Source of the DNA: a virus
Taxonomy: Monodnaviria; Loebvirae; Hofneiviricota; Faserviricetes; Tubulavirales; Inoviridae
Virus record (IMG/VR): IMGVR_UViG_2923312938_000004
Length of the DNA stretch: 37,945 bases
Reading direction: 5' to 3' (one strand)
Part shown: one piece after another, positions 1 to 37,945 of the stretch
Layout: each line of letters starts with the position of its first letter
Position numbering within the stretch: position 1 is the stretch's first letter
The notes under the pieces: generated by a model
Told to the model about the DNA's origin: nothing
What the model saw: only the letters and a program-made list of their open reading frames with translations
The model's database searches: none
Program-made: the position numbers and the translations under genes

Positions 1-360
1 CTACTTCATTAAACCCAGTGTCAGTTTTCCGAGAATGAAAGCCTTCACCCGGAAGGCAAAATACAGCGACCATGCGCCGGTAATAATATTCAGGCAGACC
101 GGAAGGTTATCCGGAAACAGGCTGGACACGCTGATCCAGACCGGATGCGTGAATACCGGAGAGGTCAGCATCAGGGAAGAAAACTTTTCATTCACGAAGG
201 AAATAAAAACGCTGTAAAACCCATACCAGACCCCGACCGTGGTCAGTGCAATCACGGACTTGAGGAGAAAAAAACGCAGGAGGCACCGGAAAATAAACGG
301 CACCAGAAATATCATCATATCCTTAAAAAAGACGGTCAGTCCCATAAAAACAGCTGGCAT
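1..360 (-). CDS. gVI-like minor virion/membrane protein (119 aa, very hydrophobic)
   Basis: Complete ORF (stop at 1-3, ATG at 358-360) directly downstream of the gIII-like gene with 2-nt spacing. Multi-TM hydrophobic composition and position between gIII and gI as in Ff phages. SD-like GGTAGG upstream. Confidence 0.6.
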   Translation of the reverse strand: MPAVFMGLTVFFKDMMIFLVPFIFRCLLRFFLLKSVIALTTVGVWYGFYSVFISFVNEKFSSLMLTSPVFTHPVWISVSSLFPDNLPVCLNIITGAWSLYFAFRVKAFILGKLTLGLMK

Positions 361-362
361 AT

Positions 363-1691
363 TTACCTACCGGATAATGATTTATCAACCAGGATGACTA
401 ATGACACTGCGGTGATGACATAAATAAAAAAGCGAATAACCTCCCGCAGATAACCGTCATAAATACGACAGACACCTTCCGTGGAGAGATTAAAGGGCAT
501 TTCCTCACCCCCGAAAGGCCGGAATGAAAAACTTAAATCCAGTGGCACACAGACATCCCTGTTATTGCCGAAGAAGCCCTGAGGAATAATGCCGGAAAAA
601 TTAAGCACAGGCACATAATCTTCAATCAGGGGAATAAGTTCCTGAATCCGGTCCTGTACGCCCTGCTCCACTGAACTTATACCGTTCTCAATAATCCCCT
701 GCATAGTGCTGTTAAACTGCGCCTGAGACGAAGAGTAGTTTTTATCCGGCTCTGTCAGTGCGCCAAATTTTTCATCAATGCTGTGTAAATATTTCACCTG
801 CCTTTCTGTCATATAATCCATGGTAACAAGGGTTTTATTCTGAAGTTCAATGTAGCTGCTATGAAAACTGTCAATTTTGTCTCCGATGGCAGGCAGTCCG
901 GCATTCAGCAGATAATATATTTTTCTTCCCCACTCATCAGAAAGACCGTCATCCCCGTTTCCGGTGTTATTATCATTGCCGTCACTCCCGGTATTTCCAC
1001 CACCGGAATTATTACCGCCATCGCTGCCGGAATTATTATCTTCACTACCGTTGTTATCTTCCTCATTACCGTTGTCAGGAACAATTTTCCCGTCCTCAAT
1101 TTTATAACCCTCCCTTAAATAACAGGTGCTGTTATAAAGGTTCTGCCAGCCGGAACCGTTGGGAGTGCAGGAGTAATATTTTGCGTGAGCGCGCAACTCA
1201 GATAAAGGCATAGTTTCCCGCGGGGGATAATATCCTGAAAATGAACCACAGATTAACAGCGGATTATTATCACACTCCTGCCTCCTCAGTGTATCCGCAA
1301 GTTCAAGCAAATAGACAGCAGAAACCTGACCGGATACAGCGTTATCATTATCATCACCGGAACTGTTGTCCCCGTTGCCGCCGGAACTGTTATCCCCGTC
1401 ACCGCCATCACCATCCGAAGGCTCATAAGCTGCCACAGGGATCCAGTTAGTAGCGGCGACATCACCTGTTTCACTGCCAACAATCACACCTGTCGCCATA
1501 TAAATACAGCCATCCACAACAGCATACCATGTATTATCACTGCGAAACGCCCCGGAAAGTGACCCCTGCAGCGCCGGACGGGAAATACAGGCCTCATCAG
1601 ACTCCGTTAAATTAAAAGGCGCAAATGTTCTTGTGAATGACTCAGCAGATGAAAAGAACGGAAGAAATAAAAGCAGAAATAACAGCCGCAT
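363..1691 (-). CDS. gIII-like adsorption (minor coat) protein, 442 aa
   Basis: N-terminal signal peptide MRLLFLLLFLPFFSSA, Cys-containing domains, two Gly/Asn/Asp-rich low-complexity linkers, and a C-terminal membrane anchor (VIRFFIYVITAVSLVILV). Sits immediately after the major coat gene. GAGG SD upstream. Confidence 0.7.
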   Translation of the reverse strand: MRLLFLLLFLPFFSSAESFTRTFAPFNLTESDEACISRPALQGSLSGAFRSDNTWYAVVDGCIYMATGVIVGSETGDVAATNWIPVAAYEPSDGDGGDGDNSSGGNGDNSSGDDNDNAVSGQVSAVYLLELADTLRRQECDNNPLLICGSFSGYYPPRETMPLSELRAHAKYYSCTPNGSGWQNLYNSTCYLREGYKIEDGKIVPDNGNEEDNNGSEDNNSGSDGGNNSGGGNTGSDGNDNNTGNGDDGLSDEWGRKIYYLLNAGLPAIGDKIDSFHSSYIELQNKTLVTMDYMTERQVKYLHSIDEKFGALTEPDKNYSSSQAQFNSTMQGIIENGISSVEQGVQDRIQELIPLIEDYVPVLNFSGIIPQGFFGNNRDVCVPLDLSFSFRPFGGEEMPFNLSTEGVCRIYDGYLREVIRFFIYVITAVSLVILVDKSLSGR

Positions 1692-1704
1692 AATGACCTC
1701 TGAT

Positions 1705-1725
1705 AAAAAAGGGGCGCACGGCCCC
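1705..1725 (-). terminator. Intrinsic terminator between major coat gene and gIII-like gene
   Basis: Minus-strand GC hairpin (aggggccgtgcgcccct) followed by a U-run, located 20 nt after the gVIII stop and 14 nt before the gIII start. Ff phages have a terminator at the equivalent place. Confidence 0.6.
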
Positions 1726-1746
1726 TGTATTATTAATTAAACAGCA

Positions 1747-2022
1747 TCAGGAAGATGCCATTCTGAAGAGGGATTTAACTACGCGGAAACCAATCATTAA
1801 AGAAACGCCAAAGCCCAGTAAAAGAAATGCTGCGGTACCCACCACGCCCAGCGTTGACAAAATGGAGTTCACCACCGGGTCAATCATATCCTGGTTGATA
1901 ACTGCCTGTCCGGGGGTATAACTCACCCCTTCAGCCAGAACAGGACCGGACGCCAGCATCAGGGAAGATGCAATGACCAGAGGTTTTTTTACGAACGTAA
2001 CTGCTTTTTCACGAACAGACAT
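1747..2022 (-). CDS. Major coat protein (gVIII-like), 91-aa precursor
   Basis: ATG at 2022 preceded by AGGAG. Signal peptide ending ...GPVLA, acidic mature N-terminus, a single hydrophobic helix (LGVVGTAAFLLLGFGVSLMIGF) and a basic C-terminus (RVVKSLFR). This is the classic inovirus major capsid architecture. Confidence 0.8.
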   Translation of the reverse strand: MSVREKAVTFVKKPLVIASSLMLASGPVLAEGVSYTPGQAVINQDMIDPVVNSILSTLGVVGTAAFLLLGFGVSLMIGFRVVKSLFRMASS

Positions 2023-2042
2023 AATATATAACTCCTGTATTA

Positions 2043-35716: not shown

Positions 35717-35725
35717 AAACACACC

Positions 35726-36952
35726 TTAAAATGGAACTGAACGATTATAGAATTTACCTGCAATTACCTGCCGATAAACATCCGGTATTGAAAATCTAAT
35801 CTTCTCATCCTGTATATCCTCATGTCTGACAATAGCAGTAAAGACCGCCTCGTAATCATTACCGAGAAGATGAAATAGCTTTGCAACAGATTTAGAGCAC
35901 TGCTTACGTAACCAGTGAACATTATGTTCCAGTGCATTAATTGCCTTTTTTTCGTCCGCTAAATCAGGACGATAAGGATTAAACTTGCGTGGTTTAGCTG
36001 GATTGATTTGTGCTGCATAATCACACAATCCCGTAAAATAACCGGCAATATCAAGCAGTACATCAACAGGAACCCCTTTAAGCTCGACCTCAGAACGATT
36101 CCACGTACCACTGACTTTTTGTTCAAGCGCTTTATTATAGATACGCCAGTAAACACGCGATTGCCGGGAACCAAACGTGTACATCTCCTGCTTTAATACT
36201 GCGCGACCATCCCATTTACAGGAGTTCGAAAAACCCGGACGCGGTCCCTTACCACTATAAAACGCGCCAGAGCGATGATCGCGAACAGCAGCGTCACACG
36301 TAAAAACACCATCGAAATCATCAACAGCCAAATCAATACGCTTAAGTGTCGTAATATTGAGATGTTTCAACCATTTGAATACATCCTGAGGCTCAGTGCC
36401 ACTAAATACATGAGCACATCCCAGACCGGAAATCTGTATATATACCGTGTTATTGTTTCCACCCCAGAACACAAAGCCATGTAAATTATTACCGCCATCG
36501 TCAGAAAATAATGGCGCAGAACAGCGATAATTAAAGCCACCACGATCCCGCTCCGGTCCCATACTCAAACCAAAAGCACTGGATAACCAGATTTTAAGAC
36601 GATGCAAATACGCAGCCTGAACAGCCTGATTATATTGTTCAATATGCTGTTCAATAAACGCTCTATCACCAGAAATGCCGCTACAAATTTTATCTGACTC
36701 CGCATCATCAGGAACCCAGCATCGAGTCTCAGGATCAACCACATCACGAAAGAAGGCATCACGACCGGGCAGAAAATCACGCAGACGCGGCATGGAACCA
36801 TACTTACGCCAGAACTGAATAGCGCCGTCGAAAGTCTCAAGATTCTTCAGCTCACTCATGGGGAAAGTGAATGCAAGATGGTCTATGAAGACGTGACGTA
36901 TGGTTTCCTGAACCGGCTTCATTAGCAAACAGTCTCCTGATAACCGACCCAT
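35726..36952 (-). CDS. Rolling-circle replication initiator Rep (copy E)
   Basis: Identical 408-aa translation. Confidence 0.7.
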
Positions 36953-37119
36953 GAACCAGAAGGCAGTGCAACAGATACCAGAACGAAGTCATCCCCGATT
37001 GTTTCTAAGCATGCAATGACCAGCTCATTAAACGAGCTGAAAAAATCCCATTCACCATCAATGCAGGCATTAACGCCATAATCAGGAATGTAATCGTAGT
37101 AAACAATCTCGTGAGACAT
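36922..37119 (-). CDS. Small acidic hypothetical protein upstream of Rep (copy E)
   Basis: Identical 65-aa ORF. Confidence 0.35.
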
Positions 37120-37256
37120 GTTTGCACCGCAATATATTTACCGCATGCGCGCATCATAATCACATTTAACACGTGTTGTAAATACGCATGCGCTATGCGG
37201 GTGTAAAAAAAATGGAATAATCACCTTCTATTGAAAGGACATAGAGGTAAATTTTG

Positions 37257-37469
37257 ATGAAAAAAGAAACAAAGCGCGGAGACACAACCGTAAGGATTAA
37301 CGAAAACAGAAAACTGGAGCTAAAACGAAGAGTGCTGGAAATCGGTAATAAAACAGGTGAGCTACTAAAACCATCAGAGATAGTAAACCACTTAATAGAC
37401 AACTACTTAGATGATGCGGTGAAAGATCTAATAAGCAAAGAAGAACTTAAGAAAAAAAAGGCAATGTGA
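37257..37469 (+). CDS. RHH DNA-binding regulator, 70 aa (copy E)
   Basis: Identical to the copy B form. Confidence 0.6.
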   Translation: MKKETKRGDTTVRINENRKLELKRRVLEIGNKTGELLKPSEIVNHLIDNYLDDAVKDLISKEELKKKKAM

Positions 37470-37771
37470 TCCCTTTTCCTGCATTCAGCAGACTACCCGC
37501 GAAGGATCGAAAGGATACGGTTTAACTGGAAACCCTTGAGTTTCCGTTGACTCTACCCCCGTGTTACAAGACGGGGGTTTTTCTCCCGGCCTGTAACACA
37601 TCGCTCTCTGATGTTAATGCAGGCGCTCCGCTCCTCGCAGGTTGTCGTTGTCGGCGTCCTCCTCCCGTCGTCCTTCTTCGCCTCCAACCTGCTGCGGTGC
37701 GGTACGACTGGATTAAGGGCGATTCAACTTCGTTACATGGACATTTAAAAAACAAAAGCATGAGGGGAAGA

Positions 37772-37945
37772 ATGAACAACTGGAGTGAGATCATATTAGA
37801 CCTGCTGATGAAGCACATAATAGGTGGCGCTGCGATTGGCGTGGCTATCCTGTTGTTTGCCGGAGTGATTTTTCCTGTTGCGCTGAAGATAAGGAAGCTC
37901 ACTGGCAGGAAAAAACAGCGAATAAAACAGAAACTCATCAGTTAA
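37772..37945 (+). CDS. Small membrane protein with polybasic tail (copy E)
   Basis: ATG verified at 37772; the stop is the last codon of the window. Confidence 0.55.
   Translation: MNNWSEIILDLLMKHIIGGAAIGVAILLFAGVIFPVALKIRKLTGRKKQRIKQKLIS

Follow-up and report, generated by a model that had tools for sequence, protein, structure and literature searches.

The 37,945-nt stretch of DNA analysed here (the window) is, with a probability of roughly 0.88, the interior of a chromosomal tandem array of a filamentous phage, phiA, lying at dif in ETEC strain 503025 between a fimA-type fimbrial operon and hipBA; on the same reading, the array arose by a CTXphi-type mechanism, and the single-base deletions in the window are PacBio errors. 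A chromosomal dif array is favoured because the window matches a chromosome exactly, host flanks and dif junctions lie beyond its ends, such arrays recur elsewhere, and the flanks rebuild an empty dif locus.

Array architecture and phage genes

Offsets between 20-mers in the window peak at 8260-8270 bp, and MAFFT alignment of the five window units (8269, 8265, 8264, 8267, and 4880 bp; Table 1) yields a consensus unit of 8270 bp, of which the window holds 4.59 head-to-tail copies. The preliminary description had proposed a tandem head-to-tail array of an ~8.27-kb unit, and its unit starts proved exact. It had also recognized a filamentous phage genome, which is borne out by the Zot, Secretin, Phage_Coat_A, and Rep_trans domains found with Pfam, and by a pI protein 32% identical to M13 gene I (32.5% to M13/f1 gene I over residues 1-219). 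A unit of 8,270 nt fits the small circular ssDNA genome of filamentous phages. The further claim that every unit carries the same 10-11 genes in the same order stands for the DNA, since the order of the g6p-like, g3p-like, coat, Rep, Zot, and secretin genes and several small ORFs repeats in every unit, but fails for the reading frames as recorded. At the ORF level, the g3p, Zot, g6p, and coat genes are broken in units 2-4 because of 1-bp deletions (unit 3 having broken g3p-like, g6p-like, coat, and Zot frames), while all genes of the phiA consensus are intact.

Table 1. Units, genes, and sites of phiA in the window (positions in window coordinates).
Feature	Position	Strand	Evidence or remark
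Unit 1	1..8269	-	One 1-bp deletion after 4386 (A-run); corresponds to NZ_CP025892.1:1546659 onward
Unit 2	8270..16534	-	Five 1-bp deletions after 12408, 12949, 13604, 15299, 15665; G->A at 9494
Unit 3	16535..24798	-	Six 1-bp deletions after 16801, 17354, 17419, 17450, 18513, 23562; G->A at 17755
Unit 4	24799..33065	-	Three 1-bp deletions after 25717, 26021, 29303
Unit 5, partial (4880 bp)	33066..37945	-	Zero differences from consensus
57-aa single-pass membrane protein, basic tail	4706..4879	+	Sequence; adjoins attP
attP cassette at inter-unit junction	4884..4977	-	Two inverted dif-like XerC/XerD sites around a GC stem-loop
Intergenic region	4974..5590	.	Two imperfect ~305-bp direct repeats, 79% identity
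pIV-like secretin, 406 aa	5776..6996	-	Pfam Secretin PF00263, E = 1.8e-25
pI/Zot morphogenesis ATPase, 418 aa	7006..8262	-	Pfam Zot PF05707, E = 1.2e-9, above gathering score
g6p-like membrane protein, 119 aa	33066..33425	-	phrog_27651, weak phrog_1944; between g3p and Zot
g3p-like attachment protein, 442 aa	33428..34756	-	Phage_Coat_A PF05357, E = 2.4e-10, residues 3-72
Candidate major coat protein, 91 aa	34812..35087	-	phrog_17608; sits before g3p
Candidate minor coat protein, hydrophobic, 52 aa	35108..35266	-	ORF list, translation; g7p/g9p slot
111-aa ORF	35381..35716	-	phrog_14411, unknown function; g5p/RstB slot
Rolling-circle replication initiator (Rep), RstA-type, 398 aa	35726..36922	-	Pfam Rep_trans PF02486, E = 1.5e-21
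65-aa ORF upstream of Rep	36922..37119	-	phrog_3104
70-aa divergently transcribed protein	37257..37469	+	phrog_2503, unknown function; CTXphi rstR position

Rep also matches the phrog_453 replication initiation protein (E = 3e-109), the g3p-like protein matches the phrog_8482 attachment protein, and the coat candidate shows a weak match to the phrog_1859 'major head protein' (E = 0.008). The secretin shares 52% amino acid identity with that of CUS-1 in UTI89. Several small proteins are assigned from their position: the 70-aa protein, for which Pfam, NCBIfam, and PDB returned no match, is a candidate regulator, and the 111-aa ORF, with no PDB match, a putative ssDNA-binding protein. Neither the 52-aa ORF nor the 57-aa membrane protein has a family match; the latter occupies the 'cargo' slot, where CTXphi carries ctxAB. 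Each ~305-bp repeat of the intergenic region has a terminator-like hairpin, and this region is a candidate origin or packaging region.

Chromosomal context and attachment site

The preliminary description rightly held that a prophage array and a free phage could not be told apart from the window alone, which contains no host DNA, and proposed looking beyond it for host sequence and a chromosomal dif junction. Both were found. The whole window lies, letter for letter, within the ETEC strain 503025 chromosome (NZ_CP025892.1:1546659-1584603), in which the full array measures 41,348 bp (5.0 units, from consensus position 4965 to 4977) and is flanked by host genes on both sides. Host DNA begins 3.3 kb left and 97 bp right of the window ends, unit 5 stopping 97 bp short of the array's right end (attR).

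The junction sequences and the reconstruction of the empty site place the insertion precisely at the chromosomal dif, which is regenerated on one side. On the fimA side, the regenerated dif forms the left junction, ATTTAACATAATATACATTATGCGCACt, which departs from dif by a single base of the XerC arm. On the hipA side lies an attP/host hybrid site: the attP cassette adjoins host DNA in the source record to form attR, and attP is followed there by host ...GCGCACCAGTATAAACC. When the two host flanks are joined in silico, the dif locus is restored without interruption, and other E. coli carry it at 100% identity; this rebuilt empty locus is covered to at least 80% in 3,363 of 5,426 genomes.

Each of the four internal junctions in the window is an intact attP, the copies at 13152-13245, 21414-21507, and 29680-29773 being identical to the one in Table 1. 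As ssDNA, attP is predicted to fold into a hairpin whose central region bulges by 6 nt (TGTTAC); the folding energy is -43.7 kcal/mol (z = -11.5). The TGT that adjoins the XerC arm agrees with the central region of dif. The central regions of the two attP sites are ill suited to duplex sites, and site B, as a duplex, has an 11-nt spacer. No integrase or recombinase family was detected in any phiA ORF by Pfam, PHROG, and further family searches. Judged by its sequence (inverted dif-like sites, no integrase, an RstA-type Rep), phiA is a CTXphi-type Xer-dependent element. The array junctions are compatible with an irreversible XerC exchange of a single strand pair on ssDNA, and dsDNA integration via the same XerC arm would look identical.

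Copies of phiA occupy the same dif site, in the same orientation, in E24377A (one copy), 503440 (two), TW10573 (two), 503829 (three), and 504211 (two), all of them indel-free relative to the consensus. On a metagenome scaffold, both flanks enclose an exact array of two copies; arrays of 2-5 phiA copies are found in five genomes (503025 included) and one metagenome scaffold. In 503829, a private SNP is present in copy 3 only, and the array copies are therefore physically distinct. Strain 504211 also holds two copies of phiB, a sibling phage whose Rep, SSB, and regulator differ from those of phiA. They lie on the dif side of the two phiA copies, and the 'flavours' of the junctions (TGGCATTG versus TGGCGTTG) fit the expectation for genomes that integrate in turn into a regenerated dif.

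Differences between copies and alternative readings

The window copies differ at only 13 alignment columns, with 15 single-base deletions, no insertions, and one G->A substitution. Thirteen of the deletions fall in runs of at least five identical bases, and the runs at consensus 920, 7034, and 1225 are hit more than once. All 15 lie at least 7.7 kb from either array end, in an interior of 26 kb. The paper naming strain 503025 made its complete genomes on PacBio RS II (PMC6446980), and the deletions look like consensus errors of such an assembly, where flank-anchored reads could not polish. The substitution, common to interior copies 2 and 3 (window 9494 and 17755), is atypical for PacBio error and may be a real variant or reflect mixed templates.

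That the frameshifts are instead real, the interior copies of a decaying array having been inactivated by slipped-strand deletions, is improbable. Homopolymer runs are natural slippage hot spots and only interior copies are hit, but 15 deletions stand against no insertions and essentially no substitutions, the same runs are hit again in different copies, the changes are confined to the region out of reach from the unique flanks, and no such change occurs in the 10 phiA copies of five other genomes. The frameshifted 'genes' of the NZ_CP025892.1 array (e.g., WP_250186161-WP_250186167) are most likely assembly errors, and where a 'complete' genome of the RS II era contains a long exact tandem repeat, the repeat's interior is not to be taken as pseudogenisation. 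It is more improbable still that the periodicity itself is an artefact, produced by over-extension of a circular contig or mis-assembly of a single-copy element. Long-read assemblers can concatenate small circles, and the copies are otherwise identical; against this, both array ends join host DNA at dif-derived hybrid sites, 2-3-copy arrays recur in four other genomes and the metagenome scaffold, 503829 has its within-array SNP, and 504211 a hetero-array of two different phages. The least credible reading is a free phage whose circular 8.27-kb genome either formed a replicative-form concatemer or underwent rolling-circle/MDA amplification. The lack of host DNA in the window and the intact attP at every internal junction, as in a circle, would suit it, but it is refuted by the exact match to the NZ_CP025892.1 chromosome, in which host junctions lie beyond both window ends and with which the window's idiosyncratic error pattern agrees base for base.

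More doubt attaches to the copy number. The five copies in 503025 come from one long-read assembly, and few RS II reads could span a 41-kb exact repeat. The chromosomal array may thus be real with five being only an assembly estimate, units having been added or dropped, possibly via episomal replicative-form reads; this is a serious alternative, although the less probable one. The platform, RS II, and the confinement of all 15 consensus errors to the interior 26 kb speak for it, the latter implying an interior without uniquely placed read coverage, as do replicative-form-like circles of related phages that were assembled as small 'plasmids' in other strains, such as pJNE25-005_3, with an intact attP. 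Conversely, assemblers collapse exact tandem repeats more often than they expand them, no separate 8.27-kb phiA replicon was present in the 503025 assembly among the matches, the arrays of sister strains from that study are clean, with 2 and 3 copies, and YpfPhi is documented with up to four copies (PMC4266046).

Proposed cycle and relation to known phages

CTX-type elements, including YpfPhi and CUS-1, carry two inverted sites and integrate irreversibly, and they rely for production on rolling-circle replication from tandem copies (PMC4246890). By analogy, we infer hairpin use, XerCD dependence, the packaged strand, the origin position, and virion production for phiA. The packaged (+) strand would be the window's minus strand, on which the two inverted dif-like sites would fold into a bulged hairpin mimicking dif. 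Host XerC/XerD would exchange one strand pair between hairpin and dif, and replication would resolve the junction. As the expected outcome, the secretin side would keep a functional dif and the hipA side would receive attP in double-stranded, Xer-inert form, the arrangement that the junction sequences show. Because dif is regenerated, successive genomes would integrate on the dif side, and recombination between copies may alter their number, giving arrays of 1-5 copies. As Xer would not excise a double-stranded attP, new (+) strands would come from the RstA-type Rep, which would nick the origin of one copy and terminate at that of the next, making at least two tandem copies the production template. 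Copy number varies among closely related clinical ETEC isolates, and array state may therefore be a quick proxy for phage productivity.

The E. coli siblings of phiA (phiB of 504211, phiC of JNE25-005, IMG/VR UViG_2609459832_000001, and the EC12 prophage) share its attP cassette at 96-100% identity and its dif site, and form tandem or interleaved arrays. The morphogenesis module is 95-98% identical to that of phiA in phiB, phiC, and UViG_2609459832_000001. In contrast, the siblings have swapped replication/regulation modules, with G2P_X_C or a 'replication endonuclease' instead of Rep_trans, and other cargo, phiC carrying a TolA C-terminal-domain protein. Tentatively, and at slightly worse than even odds, E. 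coli including ETEC would carry a modular CTX-type inovirus family, in which a common ~100-nt attP hairpin and a morphogenesis module with its own secretin are combined with swapped replication/immunity modules and cargo, and which forms homo- and hetero-arrays at dif, with 1-5 copies among near-identical isolates. If so, array state rather than gene content would decide a lysogen's virion production, and the cargo slot beside attP could bear on superinfection or on the host's phenotype in a major diarrhoeal pathogen. The dif prophage-array lifestyle itself is already well documented for CTXphi and YpfPhi (PMC4266046, PMC4246890). What phiA adds to the small set of CTXphi-type Xer-dependent phages is an uncharacterised E. 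coli inovirus; the literature searched contained no account of an ETEC filamentous prophage.

Like phiA, CTXphi (dif1, Vibrio cholerae) integrates at dif without a phage integrase, through an attP of two inverted dif-like sites that folds into a bulged hairpin (a predicted fold in phiA), and leaves a regenerated dif on one side and Xer-inert sites on the other. In both, the replicase is of the RstA family (Rep_trans) and a small gene upstream of it is transcribed divergently, and both form tandem arrays. Their hosts differ, and their proteins are similar at the family level only. Whereas CTXphi uses its host's secretin, phiA encodes its own pIV secretin; it lacks ctxAB and has the 57-aa membrane protein in the slot beside attP. 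No RS1-like satellite was seen with phiA. CTXphi needs its tandem arrays to produce phage DNA by the rolling-circle route (PMC4246890).

CUS-1phi (UTI89; E. coli O18:K1:H7) sits in the same fimA-hipA dif locus and is oriented alike; it has the same gene order, Zot and secretin genes included, and carries in its attR an inverted-site hairpin cassette homologous to that of phiA. Nevertheless, tblastn detects similarity only in the secretin (52% at the amino acid level) and in the C-terminus of Zot (30%), only 88 bp match at the nucleotide level, and the CUS-1 Rep belongs to the II/X family, that of phiA to Rep_trans. YpfPhi (Yersinia pestis), which is 99% identical to CUS-1 over 7.1 kb, forms 2-4 tandem copies, at whose 3' end dif is regenerated (PMC4266046). 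Membership of phiA in the CUS-1phi/YpfPhi group was rejected, given the low identity to CUS-1 and the other Rep family. The Ff phages (M13, f1, fd) differ from phiA in being episomal and non-integrating, without a dif-like attP, but share with it the g3p N1 (Phage_Coat_A) domain, a secretin of their own, a similar genome size and gene order, and the related N-terminal 219 residues of pI/Zot.

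Unit structure and chromosomal context

Offsets between repeated 20-mers across the whole window peak at 8260-8270 bp, and five pieces cut at the unit starts of the preliminary description and then aligned give 8,270 columns, with unit lengths of 8269, 8265, 8264, 8267, and 4880 bp. The window therefore holds 4.59 head-to-tail copies of an 8,270-bp unit (here named phiA), and the alignment found the proposed starts to be exact. The unit is a complete filamentous-phage genome, and the earlier claim of a tandem array of such a genome is borne out by this unit and its gene set.

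Gene content and mapped features of the phiA unit (positions in the window)
Feature	Position	Strand	Remark
65-aa ORF		minus	first in order
Rep_trans (RstA-type) rolling-circle initiator		minus	second in order
111-aa ORF, ssDNA-binding-protein slot		minus	role from gene position only
52-aa hydrophobic ORF		minus	after 111-aa ORF
91-aa coat candidate		minus	after 52-aa ORF
g3p-like protein, 442 aa		minus	Phage_Coat_A N1 domain
g6p-like protein, 119 aa		minus	between g3p-like and Zot/pI
Zot/pI ATPase		minus	after g6p-like gene
pIV-type secretin		minus	last in minus-strand order
70-aa gene		plus	divergent from Rep; rstR position
57-aa membrane protein	4706-4879	plus	adjoins attP
41-aa ORF		plus	
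attP cassette	4884-4977		internal junction; three others in the window
Intergenic repeats	4974-5590		after attP; recur in each unit
Plasmid-shared stretch	5330-6423		~1.1 kb; secretin gene and upstream

No integrase is found among the ORFs of the unit, and its pI shares 32.5% identity with gene I of M13/f1. NCBIfam and PDB sequence searches returned no match for the small ORFs, and their roles are thus read from gene position only. The 57-aa ORF, without family match, combines a single hydrophobic helix with a strongly basic tail; the slot next to attP holds ctxAB in CTXphi and ORFs of unknown function in YpfPhi. Two direct repeats of ~305 bp make up the intergenic stretch after attP; they are imperfect (79% identity), and both bear a terminator-like hairpin. 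The stretch may represent an origin or packaging region that has been duplicated. A search of one unit, these repeats included, against Rfam (E <= 0.1) gave no match, while blastn matched mainly the second repeat to phiB, a sibling phage (NZ_CP025865.1).

Several ETEC genomes carry a chromosomal element with 100% identity to the unit, and the window is an exact substring of the chromosome of ETEC strain 503025 (NZ_CP025892.1:1546659-1584603), with the same broken ORFs as those annotated there by RefSeq. The array in this chromosome runs from consensus position 4965 to 4977 and measures 41,348 bp, which is exactly five units plus a 13-bp shared core. Host DNA starts 3,306 bp beyond the window on the left (ydeQRS/fimA-type fimbrial operon) and 97 bp beyond it on the right (hipA'/hipB); the window is cut from inside the array. 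The preliminary description had left open whether this was a prophage or a free phage, and had proposed looking past both ends for host DNA and a dif junction. Both are present, and the answer is a prophage array of a CTX-type inovirus, integrated in the chromosome at dif. On the host-flanked junctions in NZ_CP025892.1, three alternatives are rejected: a free phage, an over-extended circle, and a rolling-circle product; the idea of a phage-plasmid is likewise rejected, as PLSDB plasmids carry only fragments, covering at most 13% of the unit.

Next to the array, hipA is a 173-aa N-terminal fragment in strains 503025, 503440, and 503829, pseudogenised in 504211, shortened further in E24377A, and intact (440 aa) in TW10573. 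Since the phage junction is identical in all these strains, this truncation appears unrelated to phage insertion.

Differences between copies and copy number

The units differ at only 13 columns of the 8,270-column alignment. Relative to the consensus, 15 single-base deletions and no insertions were counted; 13 of these deletions fall in runs of at least five identical bases, and at consensus positions 920 and 7034 the same run is shortened in different copies. All 15 lie at least 7.7 kb from both ends of the 41-kb array and are densest in its middle; the chance that 15 uniformly placed deletions all miss the outer 7.7 kb on both sides is ~9e-4, for a threshold picked post hoc. The complete genomes in the paper naming strain 503025 were obtained with PacBio RS II. 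Ten phiA copies from other strains show no such deletions. Being deletion-only, homopolymer-biased, recurrent, and absent from those ten copies, the pattern looks like that of an unpolished long-read draft without unique read placement, and unlike decay. Real pseudogenisation of the interior copies is rejected on this signature and by the clean copies elsewhere, and the frameshifted proteins annotated inside the 503025 array are, therefore, almost certainly artefacts, a lesson of practical use. As reads cannot be placed uniquely in such an array, the copy number of five is the assembler's estimate; a different true number in 503025 is conceivable, if somewhat doubtful.

The one substitution, G to A, lies within a G5 run in the g3p-like gene and is shared by the adjacent interior units 2 and 3 (window 9494 and 17755). 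The site is G at window 1225 and 34290, and in unit 4 this run has lost a base (after 26021). The substitution may reflect either true variation within the array or a systematic error of the consensus.

Junctions and integration

The left junction, ATTTAACATAATATACATTATGCGCACt, matches E. coli dif in reverse complement, apart from a single altered base at the outer end of the XerC arm. Every internal junction in the window consists of AGTGCGCACAATGACGTTATGTGTAAAA, a GC stem-loop, and TCAACATAACGTGTAACACATTATGCGCACt, forming a pair of dif-like sites in inverted orientation (the attP cassette). At the right junction, the identical cassette ends in ...GCGCACC and is followed by host AGTATAAACC. 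Joining the host flanks in silico gives an uninterrupted 139-nt dif locus, 100% identical in other E. coli, including ETEC of the same study. Among 5,426 complete E. coli genomes, 3,363 contain this locus unbroken, with coverage of >=80%. The genomes outside this count may include many other dif-integrated elements, or just divergent flanks. The junction sequences and the reconstructed empty locus establish that insertion is precise, with crossover within the shared XerC arm.

As single-stranded DNA, the attP cassette has a computed fold of one long hairpin (-43.7 kcal/mol, against -14.6 +/- 2.5 kcal/mol for shuffled sequences; z = -11.5), in which the XerC and XerD arms are paired and a 6-nt bulge (TGTTAC) occupies the central region. 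As a duplex, the recombined site has a spacer of 11 nt, longer than a Xer site allows. The TGT that follows the XerC arm on the minus strand of the window matches the dif central region TGTATA. Following the CTXphi model, the (+) strand, here the minus strand of the window, would be the integration substrate. The chromosome reads host, dif (phage XerC arm with host centre and XerD arm), phage body, first site, loop, second site (host XerC arm), and host; this is the arrangement that the CTXphi model predicts for a (+)-strand substrate. From the analogy with CTXphi we infer that the hairpin is used, that integration depends on Xer, and what the strand polarity is.

The ~100-nt hairpin cassette is kept among E. 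coli inoviruses whose proteins are barely or not similar, and dozens of E. coli chromosomes contain the cassette by itself, with 87-96% identity in megablast. The attP cassettes retrieved are 96-100% identical, that of CUS-1 alone being more divergent. The CUS-1 attR cassette lies at 16650-16750 of the extracted UTI89 locus, and its EC12 counterpart at 10997-11100.

Recurrence of the arrays and known systems

Genomes carrying phiA at the identical dif site and in identical orientation
Genome	phiA copies	Remark
E24377A	1	complete RefSeq genome
503440	2	
TW10573	2	
503829	3	
504211	2	plus 2 copies of sibling phiB
Metagenome scaffold	2	both flanks present

The phiA copies in these other genomes have no indels relative to the consensus. 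The copies in 503829 are distinct molecules in the assembly, since a SNP occurs in the hipA-proximal copy only. In 504211, the phiB copies are on the dif side of the array, and the bases just 3' of attP (TGGCATTG for phiB, TGGCGTTG for phiA) change exactly at the phiB/phiA junction, a switch that successive integration into a regenerated dif predicts. JNE25-005 (NZ_AP045057.1, extracted locus 8000-49000) has two interleaved phage types, phiC-phiA'-phiA'-phiC-phiC-..., phiC being a further sibling, together with a 9.6-kb replicative-form-like circle with intact attP. EC12 holds two copies of another inovirus at the same dif site, with a 96% identical attP cassette. Given these genomes and the scaffold, tandem arrays in the chromosome at dif are recurrent and have been assembled independently of one another.

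In 504211 (array at 600-33250 of the extracted locus), phiB encodes a G2P_X_C Rep and a Phage_DNA_bind SSB. In phiC, the slot adjoining attP is taken by a gene whose 121-aa product contains a TolA C-terminal domain (PF06519; 15849-16214 and 41162-41527 of the NZ_AP045057.1 locus, 8383-8748 of another extracted locus); as the N1 domain of Ff g3p binds TolA, it might, speculatively, be a decoy for superinfection exclusion. The JNE25-005 circle (NZ_AP045060.1, pJNE25-005_3, 9613 bp) bears an IS3-family insertion, and two small 'plasmids' with filamentous-phage genes were also found in complete E. coli assemblies (NZ_CP128883.1, 9565 bp; NZ_CP195780.1, 7439 bp); all three are likely replicative forms deposited as plasmids. 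IMG/VR also contains a mosaic sibling, an 8,258-bp UViG.

Megablast with the unit as query matched none of 50,697 GenBank phage records, and tblastn with Zot retrieved nothing beyond Ff phages and others, at <=33% identity; by these searches, phiA has no close relative among the isolated phages of GenBank. The ~1.1-kb secretin stretch is also present, with 97.5% identity, on E. coli plasmids of ~100 kb (NZ_CP157133.1, NZ_CP157094.1, and NZ_CP157161.1), where it seems to be a fragment of a phage; PLSDB lists no gene at this place, and the RefSeq record of NZ_CP157133.1 annotates GspD. When 100,044 GTDB species representatives were scanned for Zot peptide patterns, no relative emerged; the scan says little about phiA distribution, because the patterns reach close relatives only and the phage is evidently absent from the E. 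coli representative. No description of an ETEC filamentous prophage was found in the literature consulted. Tandem arrays at dif are, as a phenomenon, textbook knowledge; this phage family, the ETEC hetero-arrays, and the shared attP cassette are undescribed.

The architecture of two inverted sites is classed as CTX-type, with YpfPhi and CUS-1phi as listed members (PMC4246890), and YpfPhi occurs as 2-4 copies in tandem, the prophage 3' end carrying a regenerated dif (PMC4266046). By every criterion testable on sequence, phiA is a CTX-type IMEX. It shares locus and gene order with CUS-1 of UTI89, and their attP cassettes are homologous. Nevertheless, protein similarity to CUS-1 is detectable only for the secretin, at 52% aa identity, and for the Zot C-terminus, at 30%, and the Rep family is different, so phiA falls outside the CUS-1/YpfPhi phage group. 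By analogy, phiA would work like CTXphi, which has no secretin of its own; unlike CTXphi, phiA encodes its own secretin, as the Ff phages do.
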